From Escherichia coli (GTDB taxonomy: Bacteria; Pseudomonadota; Gammaproteobacteria; Enterobacterales; Enterobacteriaceae): a stretch of DNA of 64,000 nt. The notes beneath the pieces were generated by a model that worked only from the letters and a program-made list of their open reading frames with translations, did not search any database and was not told where the DNA came from. A program made the translations under genes and the position numbers. The stretch lies in NCBI GenBank assembly GCA_020819635.1, contig GCA_020819635.1_4533.1; one strand, 5' to 3'. Positions 9,047-56,814 of the stretch are shown in pieces. Numbering within the stretch: the first letter of the stretch is position 1; each line of letters opens with the position of its first letter.

Positions 9047-10039
9047 ATGCGCTATCTGGTAACAGGTGGTCTTGGTTTTATTGGGAGTGCCGTGGTGCGC
9101 TCTCTTTGTCAAGATCCCAATAACGAAGTTTTTGTCGTTGATAAGATGGGCTATGCAGCAGATATTGAGAATGTAGGCGATATCACTCACGTTAAACTAA
9201 GCATAACAGATTTGGCAAACGAAACCCAGGTCAAAAGTTTAGTAGTAGAGTGCAATCCCGATTTCATCATTCACTTAGCGGCAGAGAGTCATGTGGATAA
9301 TTCTATCAAGAATCCACGAGTTTTCATCGACTCCAATATTATTGGTACATACAATTTATTGGAAGCTGCAAGGCTCCTCCCAAAAAATAAACTTAAGATG
9401 TTCGTACATGTCTCCACAGACGAAGTGTACGGCGATATGGCAGACTCTGGCGTTCCCTTTACCGAAGAGACAGCTTATGCCCCTTCAAGCCCGTACAGTG
9501 CGTCTAAGGCAGCATCTGACCATCTTGTGAAAGCTTGGTACCGTACCTACGGTTTACCTGTTGTGATAACCAACTGCTCCAATAACTTTGGACCTTATCA
9601 ACATCCAGAAAAGCTGATCCCAAAAATCATCACAAGTATCTTGACGAATAAAGAGATTCCGGTGTATGGTAAAGGCGATCAGGTGCGAGACTGGCTTTTT
9701 GTTGAGGATCATGCGCGAGCTATTCTTCAAGTGGCAACAGGTGGAGAACCAGGTCAAACGTATAATGTTGGAACACGTAATCCCAAAACCAATATGGAGA
9801 TCATCTATATGGTTTGTGACTACATGGATGCTGTACATCCAGAAGCAGGAACCTACCCTTCTTCCAACTTGATAACTTTTGTTGAAGATCGTAAAGGACA
9901 TGACTTGCGTTATGAAATCAATCCTTCTAAAATAGAGTCTGAACTGGGTTGGAGTGCAAACTCTACATTTGAACAAGATCTCTACTCAACGATTGAATGG
10001 TACTTAAACAACCCTCAATGGTGGAGTAAGAAGATTTAA
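9047..10039 (+). CDS. rmlB: dTDP-glucose 4,6-dehydratase
   Basis: N-terminal Rossmann motif [10 protein letters not shown]; family-typical [24 protein letters not shown]. Confidence 0.9.
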
Positions 10040-42706: not shown

Positions 42707-44250
42707 GACAATCTCCTCTCATCGTTAGCCATCTTTCATGGCAATCATCAATCACCAACATCATACGATCAATCTTAGGGAATTACAATCGAATTATCAT
42801 AGGGGATTCCTATCAATTATCCCATATATACCGATTATTTTTGACACCCCACTCTTGTATAAAAAGTAACCCAAAATATCTACGGGGAGAGATTATTTCG
42901 ACACACCCTGTTTCATGGCAATCGTGGCAAGAATATCTAATAGAATCAATATCATATGGCAATAATCATGGCGTATACGTAAGAAGTGCTTAACGCGAAT
43001 TTTCGGGCCGTCAGGTCCACGCAGCGACAATTCCCAAATATCATGAGAATGAGAATAATTATCATTCGTATTCAATGACTTATGCAAGGCTCATGCCAAC
43101 ATAGCGACAAGGTGGGCCACTTGATTATAAATCACACAAACACTTATTTATCAATGGTTTGGCAACTTCATCATATGACGGAACAATGTCAACCGATCCT
43201 GCTCATGACAAGCAGACTATTATTTATATGAGAATGATTATTATTTAAACGTTTATTAACATAAAAGCCAAAATAAATCAAGAATTTTCTGATTTTATTT
43301 ACGTTTAAGAGAACGTGCTCAACATATCGCTACGCGATAGTATTCGCCCCCAAAAGATTAGCCTTTATTTTCTTATATGTTTATACACTATGTGCACACT
43401 ATGCAACCTGTCGCTATTCGCTCATGTTGCTACGTGCAATTATTCATCTTGCTAATGATTTCATCTTGTAATTACCACAATGATTATTGTTATTGCGCTA
43501 ATGTTATGATCTTGGTAATTACATATAATGCTAATAATAAGCCAGCGCAATAAGTGTAAGCGTCATTACGCTTGCAATTATTGCAAGCTACGCAGTAACA
43601 AGAAATAACCGTCACCGATGGTTATGATTGTTGGGGTGTAGTTGGCTTATTATTAGCTCGCTATGTGTCCGGCATAGCGTGCTAATGATGACTCTATGAA
43701 TGATTCGTTTTGTAATGATTTCATTCAGGCACTATTATGGCAATAGTTATTATTTTAATGGTTTCGTTTGTTATTGTTCGTTAGTTGGTTGTTTTGTCGT
43801 GTTATCGTTATCCTGCTTAGTATTCATCATGGTTTGATTGTTTGTCGTTATCAATCATCTTGCTACTATTCCTTTGATTATGATTAGTTTGCTTATTGTT
43901 TTACGTTGTTTGTTGGTTAGTTGTTGCGAACTATTATCAACATTATAGTTATGCGCTTATATTGCATAGATAATCATGGATAGATGATAATGGTTATCAT
44001 TGCACTAGAAAGGAGGTAAAAGGGTGTTTTTGATGGTTTGTTGTTGGTTGTTGATCGATTTTAACCGCTCTAAATAGCTCTCTAACAGTTTGTTACCCTG
44101 GGAGGTATGGTTATTCGTTTAATGGTTGATTAGCTCGATACCGCGATTTATTCAGTTTTGTTCTGTGTCGGTTTTTCATAGGCGAAAGCTATCAACATTA
44201 TTCGGGCAAAAAGAAAGGGCGCTTGATGCGCCCCCTTATTTTGTTGTCGA
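42707..44250. other. non-coding AT-rich island with short palindromes and strand-skewed GT-rich tract
   Basis: no ORF of 60 aa or more over about 1.2 kb; palindromes TTGCAATTATTGCAA, CGCTATG...CATAGCG; three copies of the AGAAT(C/G)A..TCAT motif also found at 55.7 kb. Confidence 0.5.
44214..44245 (-). terminator. intrinsic terminator
   Basis: minus strand GGGCGC-atcaa-GCGCCC followed by TTTCTTTTT. Confidence 0.55.
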
Positions 44251-45197: not shown

Positions 45198-45258
45198 GGG
45201 CTTGCTGTATTGCTCGCCCTACGTGATAAATAATAATGTAAGCGTGATCCGGTGTCAA
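45198..45258 (-). promoter_or_regulatory. promoter plus stem-loop cassette (PeSL-like), degenerate copy
   Basis: minus strand TTGACA, 17-nt spacer, TATTAT, then GGGCGAGC...GCAAGCCC. Confidence 0.5.
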
Positions 45259-46510: not shown

Positions 46511-46567
46511 GGCGGCACCATTGCCGCCCTACGTGGTAAATATTATCACACTGGCGATCCGTGTCAA
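46511..46567 (-). promoter_or_regulatory. promoter plus stem-loop cassette (PeSL-like)
   Basis: minus strand TTGACA, 16-nt spacer, TAATAT, then GGCGGCA-ATGG-TGCCGCC. Confidence 0.6.
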
Positions 46568-52642: not shown

Positions 52643-52870
52643 TAGTATAAGACTAAAACTTTTAACGATAATCGTTATAGGCTTTATTGACCTGGCGAAT
52701 GTAACATTCGAAAGCAAGATCAATGTATTCGTATTCACGCACATAATCACCATAGGTCACTACATACATTTTTAAAGTTTCCTCATAAGCCAGGAGGATC
52801 GAATCTAAACCTATAATCTCAGTTTTTGCAATGATAGCCATGATGTTAACCTTTTATTGTTGGCGGCACC

Positions 52871-52927
52871 ATTGCCGCCCTACGTGATAAACTATACCAG
52901 AAGTTTAAACAGTGTCAACCGTTTTTA
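52871..52927 (-). promoter_or_regulatory. promoter plus stem-loop cassette (PeSL-like)
   Basis: TTGACA, 16-nt spacer, TATAGT, then GGCGGCA-ATGG-TGCCGCC. Confidence 0.6.
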
Positions 52928-53501: not shown

Positions 53502-53560
53502 GAGCGGCACCATTGCCGCCCTACGTGGTAAATATTATGCCAGTGGCGGCGATATGTCAA
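53502..53560 (-). promoter_or_regulatory. promoter plus stem-loop cassette (PeSL-like)
   Basis: TTGACA, 17-nt spacer, TAATAT, then GGCGGCA-ATGG-TGCCGC. Confidence 0.6.
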
Positions 53561-55028: not shown

Positions 55029-55088
55029 TGAGCGGCACCATTGCCGCCCTACAAGATGAATACTACGCCGCCGCCTGGTTAACGTCAA
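55029..55088 (-). promoter_or_regulatory. promoter plus stem-loop cassette (PeSL-like), first of array
   Basis: TTGACG, 17-nt spacer, TAGTAT, then GGCGGCA-ATGG-TGCCGC. Confidence 0.55.
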
Positions 55089-55196
55089 CCATTTTTCAAT
55101 CTTTTTTATTTTCTTTTTGCTTGCTATATATAAAGAAAAGGGCTATTATCTTTCTACCGCGCCAACCAGGGCGCACAACAAAGAAAGGGCGATATC

Positions 55197-55463
55197 ATGA
55201 CAAATACTACATTACACCTTATGCACTCATTGGGCTGGCAAGGCGGCACGGTGCACCAGGTAGCAAGCGCAACGGGCTTAAAGGTTGAAACCGTTCTCAA
55301 CCTGGGCGATCATAAGGTGGAAGAGATAGATCATTTTGATACGTTCGCAAATGGTTATCTATGGGCTTGCAGTGGCGGCGGGGAAAGCAAGATACCACCA
55401 GGGGCGCGGGGCGATATGTATTTTTGGTTAGGTGTCCTATCCTGGCAAGAAAACAAAAAATAA
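55197..55463 (+). CDS. hypothetical protein (isolated plus-strand ORF)
   Basis: 88-aa ORF with AAGGG RBS; GC-richer than surroundings; reality uncertain. Confidence 0.3.
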   Translation: MTNTTLHLMHSLGWQGGTVHQVASATGLKVETVLNLGDHKVEEIDHFDTFANGYLWACSGGGESKIPPGARGDMYFWLGVLSWQENKK

Positions 55464-55465
55464 TC

Positions 55466-55494
55466 TTGACAAGCCCAGGGATCGGGCTTATACT
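55466..55494 (+). promoter_or_regulatory. strong sigma70-like promoter
   Basis: TTGACA, 17-nt spacer (itself an AGCCC...GGGCT inverted repeat), TATACT. Confidence 0.5.
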
Positions 55495-55499
55495 GTTTT

Positions 55500-55700
55500 A
55501 CATACAGAAGAGGAAGCGCCACCCCACGGCGTAAAGGCGGGGCTAACATACCAGGGGGCACTGGTTGGAAGGTTGATCGCCGGTAGGCTGGGTGCTATAT
55601 ATTTGTAAAGAAATGTAAAGATAAAATAATCGCTTGCTTTCCTGGCTGGATCTGTTATTCTTATTACATGGCGAGGGGACACGGGAGCGCGAGACAAACA
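55500..55700 (+). ncRNA. candidate small non-coding RNA, GC-rich and structured
   Basis: directly downstream of a consensus promoter; no plausible ORF; locally GC-rich in an AT-rich genome; only Pro/Arg-rich antisense ORFs. Confidence 0.2.
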
Positions 55701-55722
55701 CCGCCCCTGCGCGTCATTCTCT

Positions 55723-55838
55723 AAATGAGAATGATTGTCATTTACCTTATTAAATAAGAATCAATCTCATTTATAAACTTAAATGCGAATCATTATCATT
55801 TGCATTTCCATATGAGAACTCTTCTCATTTTCACCTGC
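55723..55838. repeat. four tandem 29-bp repeats with palindromic core (operator or iteron-like)
   Basis: copies start at 55723, 55752, 55781 and 55810 (exact 29-bp period); core aAATGaGAATnaTtnTCATTT with inverted-repeat symmetry. Confidence 0.6.
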
Positions 55839-55851
55839 ATAAAAATTTTTG

Positions 55852-55910
55852 TAAACTTTAAATTTTGCTTTTGTACTTTCATTTTTGTAAAAGCAAAAAA
55901 ACTTTAAATA
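55852..55910. repeat. AT-rich direct repeat, copy A (about 58 bp)
   Basis: TAAACTTTAAATTTTGCTTTTGTACTTTCATTTTTGTAAA...ACTTTAAATA; about 85% identical to copy B. Confidence 0.5.
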
Positions 55911-55989
55911 CTGTGGGCGCGCAAAATTTTTAAAATTTTCCTTGACTTTTGAGTTTTGTTTTGTATCTAACATTTTAAGATAATTTTCC

Positions 55990-56047
55990 TAAACTTTAAA
56001 TTTTGGTTTTCAACTTTCACTTTTGTAAATTCTTAAAAAGTTTAAAT
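55990..56047. repeat. AT-rich direct repeat, copy B
   Basis: TAAACTTTAAATTTTGGTTTTCAACTTTCACTTTTGTAAA...GTTTAAATA, 138 bp downstream of copy A. Confidence 0.5.
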
Positions 56048-56177
56048 AATTTGAGGGATTTTTGAGATAAAAGATAGTGGGAATTTGATATAACCTTTAA
56101 TCTTATTGGTAAACCTTCAGGAACCCACTCAGATCGAATCCTAGTGATGCAAACTGAAAAAGACAAGGGTTTGTATA

Positions 56178-56216
56178 GGACAAAATAACAGGCTCTCTAC
56201 GGTGCTGTAGGAGCCT
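56178..56216 (-). terminator. intrinsic terminator of the minus-strand operon
   Basis: minus strand AGGCTCCTACAGCACCGTAGAGAGCCT hairpin followed by GTTATTTTGT. Confidence 0.5.
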
Positions 56217-56271
56217 TATTTCTGTGCTACAAAGTGACACCTTTGTTCTAAAAATGAAAAAAGTTAAAATA

Positions 56272-56814
56272 TCACAAATATCGTCTTTGCGGTATTTTGT
56301 CTGGGAAAAGTATTTCGATCAGTTTATTATGATATTTGCCTAAAAGATTCTGCCCTTTCCAGGTAGCAGGGTTTAGCACCCCTGGTTCATACATTCCCAT
56401 TCCAATACCGTAAACCTTATCGTAAGGACTTGCTTCAACAAACGTTTTGTATTGGTAAAGGTGTAAATCTGCATACAAATCTGGATTCTGTACATATTTC
56501 AAGCATAAGCCTCGCATAACAATACGCTCACGGTTCTCTTCCCACATATCATTATTAAAACCAGATACCGCTCGACCCATACGTTTGTAGTATGCTTGTT
56601 TCCTCTCGTTGTCACGTATAGTTGAGTGATCAAGGATAGCTGCTGCAATCGCATGATCCTTGAACAGCAAAGCCTTACGCCACATCATATATTGCTCAAC
56701 ACAACAGAAAGTCTCATTGTAACCTGGTTCAGTTTCTGTAAAGGGTGCAATATACCAATTACTAAACACATCTTTATGTGAAAAGAAGAATACATATTCA
56801 TCAGTTATTCTCAT
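56272..56814 (-). CDS. NADAR-domain protein (YbiA-like)
   Basis: VFFFSHKDVFSNWY and VEQYMMWRKA match NADAR family hallmarks. Confidence 0.75.
   Translation of the reverse strand: MRITDEYVFFFSHKDVFSNWYIAPFTETEPGYNETFCCVEQYMMWRKALLFKDHAIAAAILDHSTIRDNERKQAYYKRMGRAVSGFNNDMWEENRERIVMRGLCLKYVQNPDLYADLHLYQYKTFVEASPYDKVYGIGMGMYEPGVLNPATWKGQNLLGKYHNKLIEILFPDKIPQRRYL

Follow-up and report, generated by a model that had tools for sequence, protein, structure and literature searches.

The window analysed here, a 64,000-nucleotide stretch of an Escherichia coli assembly (GCA_020819635.1, contig GCA_020819635.1_4533.1), is by its sequence part of the genome of a Phapecoctavirus (a phAPEC8-like myovirus of the Stephanstirmvirinae, about 150 kb), and our subject is a pair of AT-rich direct repeats that it carries near 56 kb. 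We found that these repeats are the outer units (1 and 3) of a three-unit, ~70-bp direct-repeat array, present as a single copy per genome, which forms part of a conserved non-coding module and keeps its geometry across 18 lineages of two phage subfamilies, the Stephanstirmvirinae and the Vequintavirinae. Its sequence features suggest that the array is a phased protein-binding platform acting at the level of DNA, a reading to which we assign a probability of about 0.6, and that it may serve replication initiation through an origin-type complex, a more tentative assignment (about 0.3). Among the roles considered we rank an origin first and a boundary of the kind described for phage T5 second, as the main rival, followed by a repeat RNA and by transcription control.

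A reading of this DNA made from the letters alone (the sequence-only reading) had described two roughly 58-bp AT-rich copies 138 bp apart, each holding an internal short repeat, and this description stands. Positions 55852-55909 and 55990-56047 match at 49 of 58 nucleotides (84.5%) with an offset of 138 bp, and an ungapped scan places the best 58-mer pair exactly at 55852 with that same offset. A repeat search extends the pair to 72 nt (55844-55915 versus 55982-56053, 82% identical, 138 bp start to start) and recovers a third, decayed unit between the two copies (55934-55962). Dinucleotide shuffles gave a mean of 32.1 matches over 58 nucleotides (standard deviation 1.4, maximum 38), and for the 72-mer pair, in which 59 of 72 positions match, a maximum of 41, or 46 when the AT-rich sub-region alone was shuffled; the identity of the repeats lies 11-12 standard deviations above the shuffles. 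The internal short repeat is equally real, the exact word AACTTTAAAT occurring three times in the 64 kb, always within the array (55854, 55900 and 55992), with a one-mismatch copy at 56038. The repeat region is 79% AT and is situated, as had been noted, to the right of a block of 29-bp palindromic repeats (55720-55835) and to the left of the hairpin terminator of a minus-strand operon (56190-56226). The parts of the array and the motifs that follow it are these:

55844-55915, plus strand: repeat unit 1, the reference copy of the repeat pair, with 5' half-site AACTTTAAATTTTGCTTTT and 3' half TTTTGTAAAAGCAAAAAAACTTTAAATAC.
55915-55922, no strand assigned: short GC clamp GGGCGCGC separating unit 1 from unit 2, kept in phiWec190 as GTGCGCGCG.
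55923-55983, plus strand: repeat unit 2, decayed, retaining AAAATTTTTAAAATTTT and TTGACTTTTGAGTTTTG, its 3' motif now being TTTTAAGATAA; its core at 55934-55962 is 69-79% identical to units 1 and 3.
55982-56053, plus strand: repeat unit 3, the second copy of the repeat pair (82%), with 3' motif AAAAAGTTTAAATAA.
56050-56093, plus strand: three TTTGAGATAA-like motifs (tttgagggat at 56050, tttgagataa at 56061 and tttgatataa at 56084); loci L018 and L161, of Mydovirus type, likewise carry this motif three times past their arrays.

Units were anchored on the motif that ends them, an A-rich run followed by sTTTAAATAA. The window and phiWec190, a 70% identical relative, have two anchors 138-139 bp apart, and phi92-type, Klebsiella-type and metagenomic Stephanstirmvirinae have three, separated by 75 and then 66-68 bp. 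Three units are found at the same position in the Vequintavirinae, namely in Certrevirus CR9 and phiTE, Seunavirus PVP-SE1, Mydovirus KPP-1 and Vequintavirus naswa, the last of which carries the module together with its three-unit array. Across lineages the anchor spacings are either 75 plus 66-68 bp or 63-67 plus 74-78 bp, and the span from first to last anchor is 138-143 bp in all 18 lineages. The 3' motif is uniform among the units of one genome and differs between the subfamilies, units ending in TCGATCGAG(A/T)AC in the Vequintavirinae and in sTTTAAATAA in the Stephanstirmvirinae; common to the units of both are AAAAATTTTT-type tracts, AATACG and GAAAAyGAAAA. The AT content of the array ranges from 49 to 83% across the 18 lineages and is only 49-55% in Certrevirus. 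Since spacing is kept while sequence and AT content vary, the conserved traits are the number of sites, their spacing and a short palindromic core rather than AT-richness, and the conserved three-site geometry of 138-143 bp argues for a protein-binding platform rather than a simple unwinding element.

Comparison with phiWec190 likewise places conservation in the units, with identities of 82% for unit 1, 78% for unit 3 and 64% for unit 2, against 50% for the spacer between array and terminator. The 3' halves of units 1 and 3 are 90-100% identical (95-100% for that of unit 1), and unit 3 reaches a peak of 90% at 56027-56060. Absence of the repeats from related genomes had been named by the sequence-only reading as a point that would speak against its interpretation; they were found in those genomes. 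A scan of the collection with AAAAACTTTAAATAA returned 120 unrelated single matches, this pattern being of too low complexity to be informative.

In the mechanism that we propose, a sequence-specific, probably phage-encoded and co-evolving protein would bind each of the three unit-end motifs, plausibly as a dimer, the palindromic core in each unit being sTTTAAATAA in the Stephanstirmvirinae or TCGATCGAG in the Vequintavirinae. With the motifs held 63-78 bp apart and 138-143 bp in total, such binding would gather ~140 bp of DNA into one nucleoprotein complex. The array is the innermost part of a conserved control module, in which two sigma-70 promoters and a candidate small structured RNA are followed by a GC hairpin, by Fur-box-like palindromes, by the array and by a terminator. 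In our model, host RNA polymerase would transcribe toward the array, and the host-factor palindromes and phage-specific sites would together assemble the complex, on what is, in the window phage, also the easiest DNA to melt. The array is a precise and mutable target (three motifs, a fixed 141-bp span), and a comparison of binders would set TTTAAA-type phages against TCGATCGA-type phages. The remaining parts of the module in the window, with the single gene that lies beside it, are as follows:

55197-55463, plus strand: open reading frame (ORF) of 88 amino acids, phrog_19316, the sole gene in the gap, with a homolog, phiTE_079, in Certrevirus.
55466-55494, plus strand: strong sigma-70-type promoter, TTGACA-17-TATACT, pointing to the array (11 of 12 matches; kept in all lineages).
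55497-55595, plus strand: GC-rich segment, a candidate small RNA, near-invariant as CGCCACCCCACGGCG.AAAGGCGGGGCTAAC...GGAAGGT..ATCGCCGG.
55634-55661, plus strand: second promoter-like site, TTGCTT-16-TATTCT, weak in the window and TTGCAA-17-TATATT in Vequintavirinae.
55668-55712, plus strand: GC-rich hairpin with conserved loop GAGACAAACAC, its stems varying among lineages with pairing retained.
55720-55835, no strand assigned: four Fur-box-like palindromes (AAATGAGAATsATTnTCATTT), found by repeat search and identical with the 29-bp repeat block of the sequence-only reading.
56190-56226, no strand assigned: hairpin terminator AGGCTCTCTACGGTGCTGTAGGAGCCT that has T-rich runs on either strand; the ASO2A annotation lists it as a terminator, and phiWec190 retains it.

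On the plus strand these parts follow one another in identical order in every lineage compared: strong promoter, GC-rich segment, the word TTTGTAAAGAAAyGTAAAGA, second promoter-like site, GC hairpin, one to eight palindromes of the AAATGAGAATGATTCTCATTT type, and array. Beyond the array come the TTTGAGATAA motifs in some lineages and then AAATATCA repeats near the next gene. Two or three of the latter close the module on its far side, at 56255-56290 and at equivalent positions in all lineages; in the window they overlap the 3' end of the NADAR gene, and in Vequintavirinae they are preceded by a conserved block of the GAAAACCATTTCGAA type. The terminator ends both the minus-strand operon and any plus-strand read-through. 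The candidate small RNA (~100 nt) is conserved in the Stephanstirmvirinae and Vequintavirinae, is unannotated, lies directly behind the near-consensus promoter and, like the GC hairpin, matches no Rfam family; RNAalifold predicts that it forms a hairpin and a long-range helix, and one pair in the predicted helices is compensatory (GC in five sequences, AU in four).

Of the 19 positions of the Fur consensus GATAATGATAATCATTATC, the palindromes of the module match 13-15 and those of the terminal repeat up to 16, and the window as a whole has 54 sites matching at 13/19 or better where 25 are expected. We infer that the palindromes may bind Fur and would represent a host-factor site common to unrelated phage families. 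Further Fur-box-like palindromes are present in or beside the terminal repeat at 43040-43075, 43226-43250 and 43970-44005, and T5-like phages, in their left terminal repeats, and Certrevirus have Fur-like boxes that are nearly identical. A literature search found nothing that links Fur boxes to T5. Records of phages from Danish wastewater annotate the palindromes alone, as "repeat_region". The map of phage rV5 shows an ORF-free box, labelled as non-coding, with neither anatomy nor function given (Kropinski et al., 2013; PMC3606486); this is probably the same module in Vequintavirus.

The sequence-only reading had regarded AT-rich direct repeats next to iteron-like elements as typical of replication origins or of packaging and regulatory regions. 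The lambda ori, the T7 primary origin and T4 oriF share a layout in which promoters read toward repeats that are followed by easily melted DNA. The module resembles these origins, and T4 oriG, in its succession of promoters, repeated palindromes and the most meltable DNA of the region: the array stands directly after palindromic repeats and downstream of strong promoters aimed into it, and the three-unit array found in 18 lineages would provide a direct-repeat cluster able to bind an initiator. No 200-bp duplex in the 64 kb is less stable than the array, whose value of -223.9 kcal/mol (mean -257.8, standard deviation 8.9) stands at the 99.97th percentile. The presence of conserved, non-coding, cis-type repeats next to iteron-like palindromes holds, and an origin remains a tentative reading. 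Several points weigh against it. The module contains no DnaA, integration host factor (IHF) or Fis consensus sites, and cumulative GC skew, which had been proposed as a check, falls through 56 kb without an inflection, its minimum lying with the divergence in gene orientation near 62 kb. The AT-richness that the sequence-only reading stressed is not a conserved trait, being lost in the Certrevirus arrays. Classical iterons measure 17-22 bp, which the units, at 67-75 bp, exceed three- to fourfold, and no recognisable initiator gene is adjacent, the sole candidate being an AAA ATPase 2.9 kb from the array with weak clamp-loader/DnaC-like similarity. Because T5-like phages, which are unrelated, have the palindromes too, these are not initiator sites specific to the phage. 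No binder was found, the adjacent 88-amino-acid protein having no DNA-binding fold match and its homolog being absent at that position in most Vequintavirinae loci examined. In these respects (unit length, unconserved AT-richness, lack of an initiator gene or host boxes, and lack of a skew or orientation signal) the array differs from the lambda, T7 and T4 origins.

In four other lineages DnaA, IHF and Fis sites were again absent, save for one DnaA-type word in L018, outside the array. For rV5, skew analysis located no origin and skew was found to track transcription only (PMC3606486). We found no literature that defines an origin for rV5/PVP-SE1-type phages, nor any on transcriptomes of these subfamilies, and for neither subfamily does the searchable literature define a replication origin, a signal for DNA entry or a control region for early genes. 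The Stephanstirmvirinae and Vequintavirinae are widely used therapeutic and model coliphages, and if the array is an origin, replicon engineering would become possible.

The main rival takes part of its evidence from genome ends. Korf et al. give a terminal repeat of 328 bp for phage Schickermooser, and we found the ends of its record to be identical over 329 bp and to map to window positions 43319 and 42991. The mapped direct terminal repeat (window 42991-43319) is 12.5 kb from the array, and the array is 12.9-13.1 kb, or about 8.5-8.7% of the genome, from the Schickermooser-type end. A terminal repeat of 342 bp, determined by PhageTerm for BME3 (Justusliebigvirus), was confirmed as identical record ends; there the module lies at 11.6-12.3 kb and the array at about 12.0-12.2 kb (8.2%). 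KPP-1 (Mydovirus) has its terminal repeat at 116,316-116,829 and its array at about 125.3-125.45 kb, about 9 kb or 6.3% from the end. In all three the stretch from end to module holds only small genes, transcribed toward the end, and the terminal repeats themselves also contain the palindromes. In T5, Repeat Region 3 is an untranslated region at which first-step transfer stops, at 7.9% of the genome (Davison, bioRxiv 10.1101/866236), and the placement of the module makes the parallel with this first-step region striking.

By analogy, the whole module could be the counterpart of T5 Repeat Region 3, with the array, in the place of the T5 DRD repeats, as part of a nucleoprotein or structural block at which the incoming genome would pause or be anchored once its first 9-13 kb, with the early genes, are inside; we consider this the leading alternative, though an unlikely one. 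Both are large untranslated regions that bound the first-entering early genes on their inner side, at a distance of about 8% from the physical end (8.5-8.7, 8.2 and 6.3% in the three lineages with mapped terminal repeats, 7.9% for the T5 injection stop signal, iss), and both have the same order and polarity, from GC hairpin through AAATGAGAATGATTCTCATTT-type palindromes and phage-specific direct repeats to the genome interior. Sequence blocks are held in common as well (palC/palD, DRE/DRC-type boxes): the palindromes and an element combining the GC hairpin with ATTCTC..GAGAAT are present in T5-like phages, the palindrome block matching them at 81-87% over 55-59 nt (E 1e-9, one identical stretch of 31 nt), and the matching T5-like DNA is located at 9.4-9.7 kb (left terminal repeat positions 9477-9666). 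The end-proximal genes are tiny and of early type, some preceded by cassettes of promoter and 5' untranslated region (UTR) hairpin resembling T5 Repeat Region 1, and the terminal repeats bear the same palindromes. Against this, tblastn with dmp, A1, A2 and 12 other proteins of the T5-like left terminal repeat returned nothing credible from the 64 kb, the whole end-proximal region included; DnaA boxes, the core of Davison's model, are lacking, TTWTNCACA (the paired boxes of IRD'/IRC') being absent from the module; and the AT-rich units have no sequence counterpart in T5. T5 further differs in its nine 14-bp DRD repeats, its 10-kb terminal repeat and its need for A1 and A2, where the window phage has three ~70-bp units with a fixed ~141-bp span and a terminal repeat of 328 bp. 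The part of the T5 repeats in stopping injection is itself a hypothesis (Davison, bioRxiv 10.1101/866236; BF23 paper, PMC10644984), and two-step transfer in these myoviruses is unreported in the searchable literature.

The wider form of this proposal, that the module including the array is a T5-type first-step boundary throughout the rV5-like and phi92/phAPEC8-like myoviruses and that the array is the lineage-specific part of the stop signal, seems to us unlikely. If true, two-step genome delivery would not be unique to T5-like siphoviruses, and the view of genome delivery by contractile-tailed phages would change. The array also ties the largest gene-free region of these phages to the T5 injection-stop region. 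The minus-strand promoter cassettes of the window are at 45209-45235, 46519-46545, 52870-52891 and 53511-53537, with a similar one at 55040-55088, and consist of TTGACA-17-TATTAT followed by the 5'-UTR hairpin GGCGGCAATGGTGCCGCC. Over 22-27 nt they share 92-100% identity with a sequence in T5-like Repeat Region 1, where the module's TTTGTAAAGAAACGTAAAGA word is also present.

The array could instead act as RNA, in a read-through non-coding transcript whose three unstructured A/U-rich repeats titrate an RNA-binding protein as a sponge or pair with targets. Two conserved promoters are aimed into the region, the orientation of the array relative to them is constant in all lineages, a good TTGACA/TTGACT promoter stands directly before the array in Seunavirus and Mydovirus loci, and a terminator closes the unit. 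A structured RNA was rejected, with a z score of +1.68 for the plus strand (less structured than 192 of 200 shuffles) and +0.37 for the minus strand, and the low structure of the plus-strand RNA would itself fit a single-stranded binding platform. However, a hairpin with a U-rich tail (55713-55745) and the four palindromes intervene between promoters and array, and the extra promoter is not conserved in Certrevirus, Vequintavirus or the window. A search of Rfam at permissive thresholds matched no known RNA family, giving only chance microRNA hits on the palindromes. A conserved base-pair spacing of short palindromic cores is moreover more typical of double-stranded DNA sites, as in the platform that we favour, and we regard an RNA role as improbable.

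About as improbable, and ranked after it, is a role in transcription control, in which weak promoters, UP-element-like A/T tracts or H-NS/Fis-type sites would tune or insulate the flanking convergent early units. The array does have a terminator on one side and, on the other, the point where the next early operon starts, and 14 promoter-like hexamer pairs were found at 54.5-57 kb where 6.4 are expected, several of them within the units and on both strands. The AAAAATTTTT-type tracts with which the units start resemble UP-element subsites, as judged against the consensus for these. Yet the -35/-10 pairs within the units reach only 8-9 of 12 matches, and none is kept among the window, phiWec190, phi92 and Klebsiella lineages. 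No A-tract periodicity of 10-10.5 bp, as expected for helical phasing and intrinsic curvature, was detected, only a signal at 12.5-13 bp, and DnaA, IHF, Fis and CRP consensus sites are all absent from the module (55090-56272). A generic role for AT-rich DNA would also leave unexplained why the GC-rich Certrevirus arrays have the same 141-bp geometry. As general promoter words, TTTAAATA (9 observed in the 64 kb, 8.75 expected) and TTTAAAT (26 observed, 38 expected) were both rejected.

It is very improbable that the array has no function of its own, being a relic of local duplication, low-complexity AT-rich DNA or a set of small peptide genes. Its composition would suit such a reading, and TTG-start ORFs of 20-22 codons are present in units 1 and 3 of both the window phage and phiWec190. 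These ORFs, however, lack a Shine-Dalgarno sequence, their peptides have 7 of 20 residues changed from one close relative to another, and in phi92 the frame is not kept; indels of a single nucleotide separate the window from phiWec190; the array is not coding. The excess of identity over shuffled sequence, the geometry kept across two subfamilies and conservation far above that of the adjacent spacer likewise speak against a relic. Least probable of all is a pac- or cos-type recognition site for terminase, by analogy with lambda cosB, which resembles the array in having three phased protein-binding repeats in non-coding DNA (the three R sites, bound by the small terminase subunit) but adjoins its cut site, whereas the array is 12.5 kb from the terminal repeat at 42991-43319 and hence not a packaging end, the ends of BME3 and KPP-1 lying 9-12 kb from their arrays.

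The region around the repeats is 100% identical to several Phapecoctavirus genomes, with 147 matching phage records in all. Among 5,426 E. coli genomes and 72,556 plasmids, blastn found no counterpart of 55466-56270. In annotated relatives the equivalent of 55089-56271 is the largest gene-poor gap of the neighbourhood, a ~1.1-kb control region with the 88-amino-acid ORF on the plus strand; on either side of it small minus-strand genes form a run that has a sigma-70 promoter and a terminator to itself. The protein encoded by this ORF is modelled as all-alpha (pLDDT, predicted local distance difference test, 94), the model has no structural or Pfam match, and its linkage to the module is constant in the Stephanstirmvirinae. 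Neighbouring genes encode a NADAR-domain protein, a CapR-domain endonuclease and the AAA ATPase. The NADAR gene lies to the right of the terminator (56272-56814, minus strand; Pfam E 3e-35) and is labelled 'GTP cyclohydrolase II' in several GenBank records; a search for related loci with its protein added little diversity (five loci only).

Beside the terminal repeat, ~900 bp of gene-free DNA (43320-44200) is rich in ATGATTAT-type words, and the least stable 100-bp stretch of the window, at 43214-43314, is within the repeat. The record of phage ETEC-TG starts inside the region of the array, a start rejected as a meaningful end because the record is circular and its start arbitrary. One locus, L028 (IMGVR_UViG_2974574029_000001), has at ~150-900 an ORF of 197 amino acids with no Pfam match inserted inside the RNA-like segment; behind it stand a second promoter and part of the segment in a further, diverged copy, an arrangement that looks like the insertion of a mobile gene with target duplication. 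Finally, MG065639, MG065645, MG065656 and MG065689, named 'Campylobacter phage' with C. jejuni as host, are 97.6% identical to coliphage phi92 over the module, which suggests that these four records are contaminated or mislabelled.

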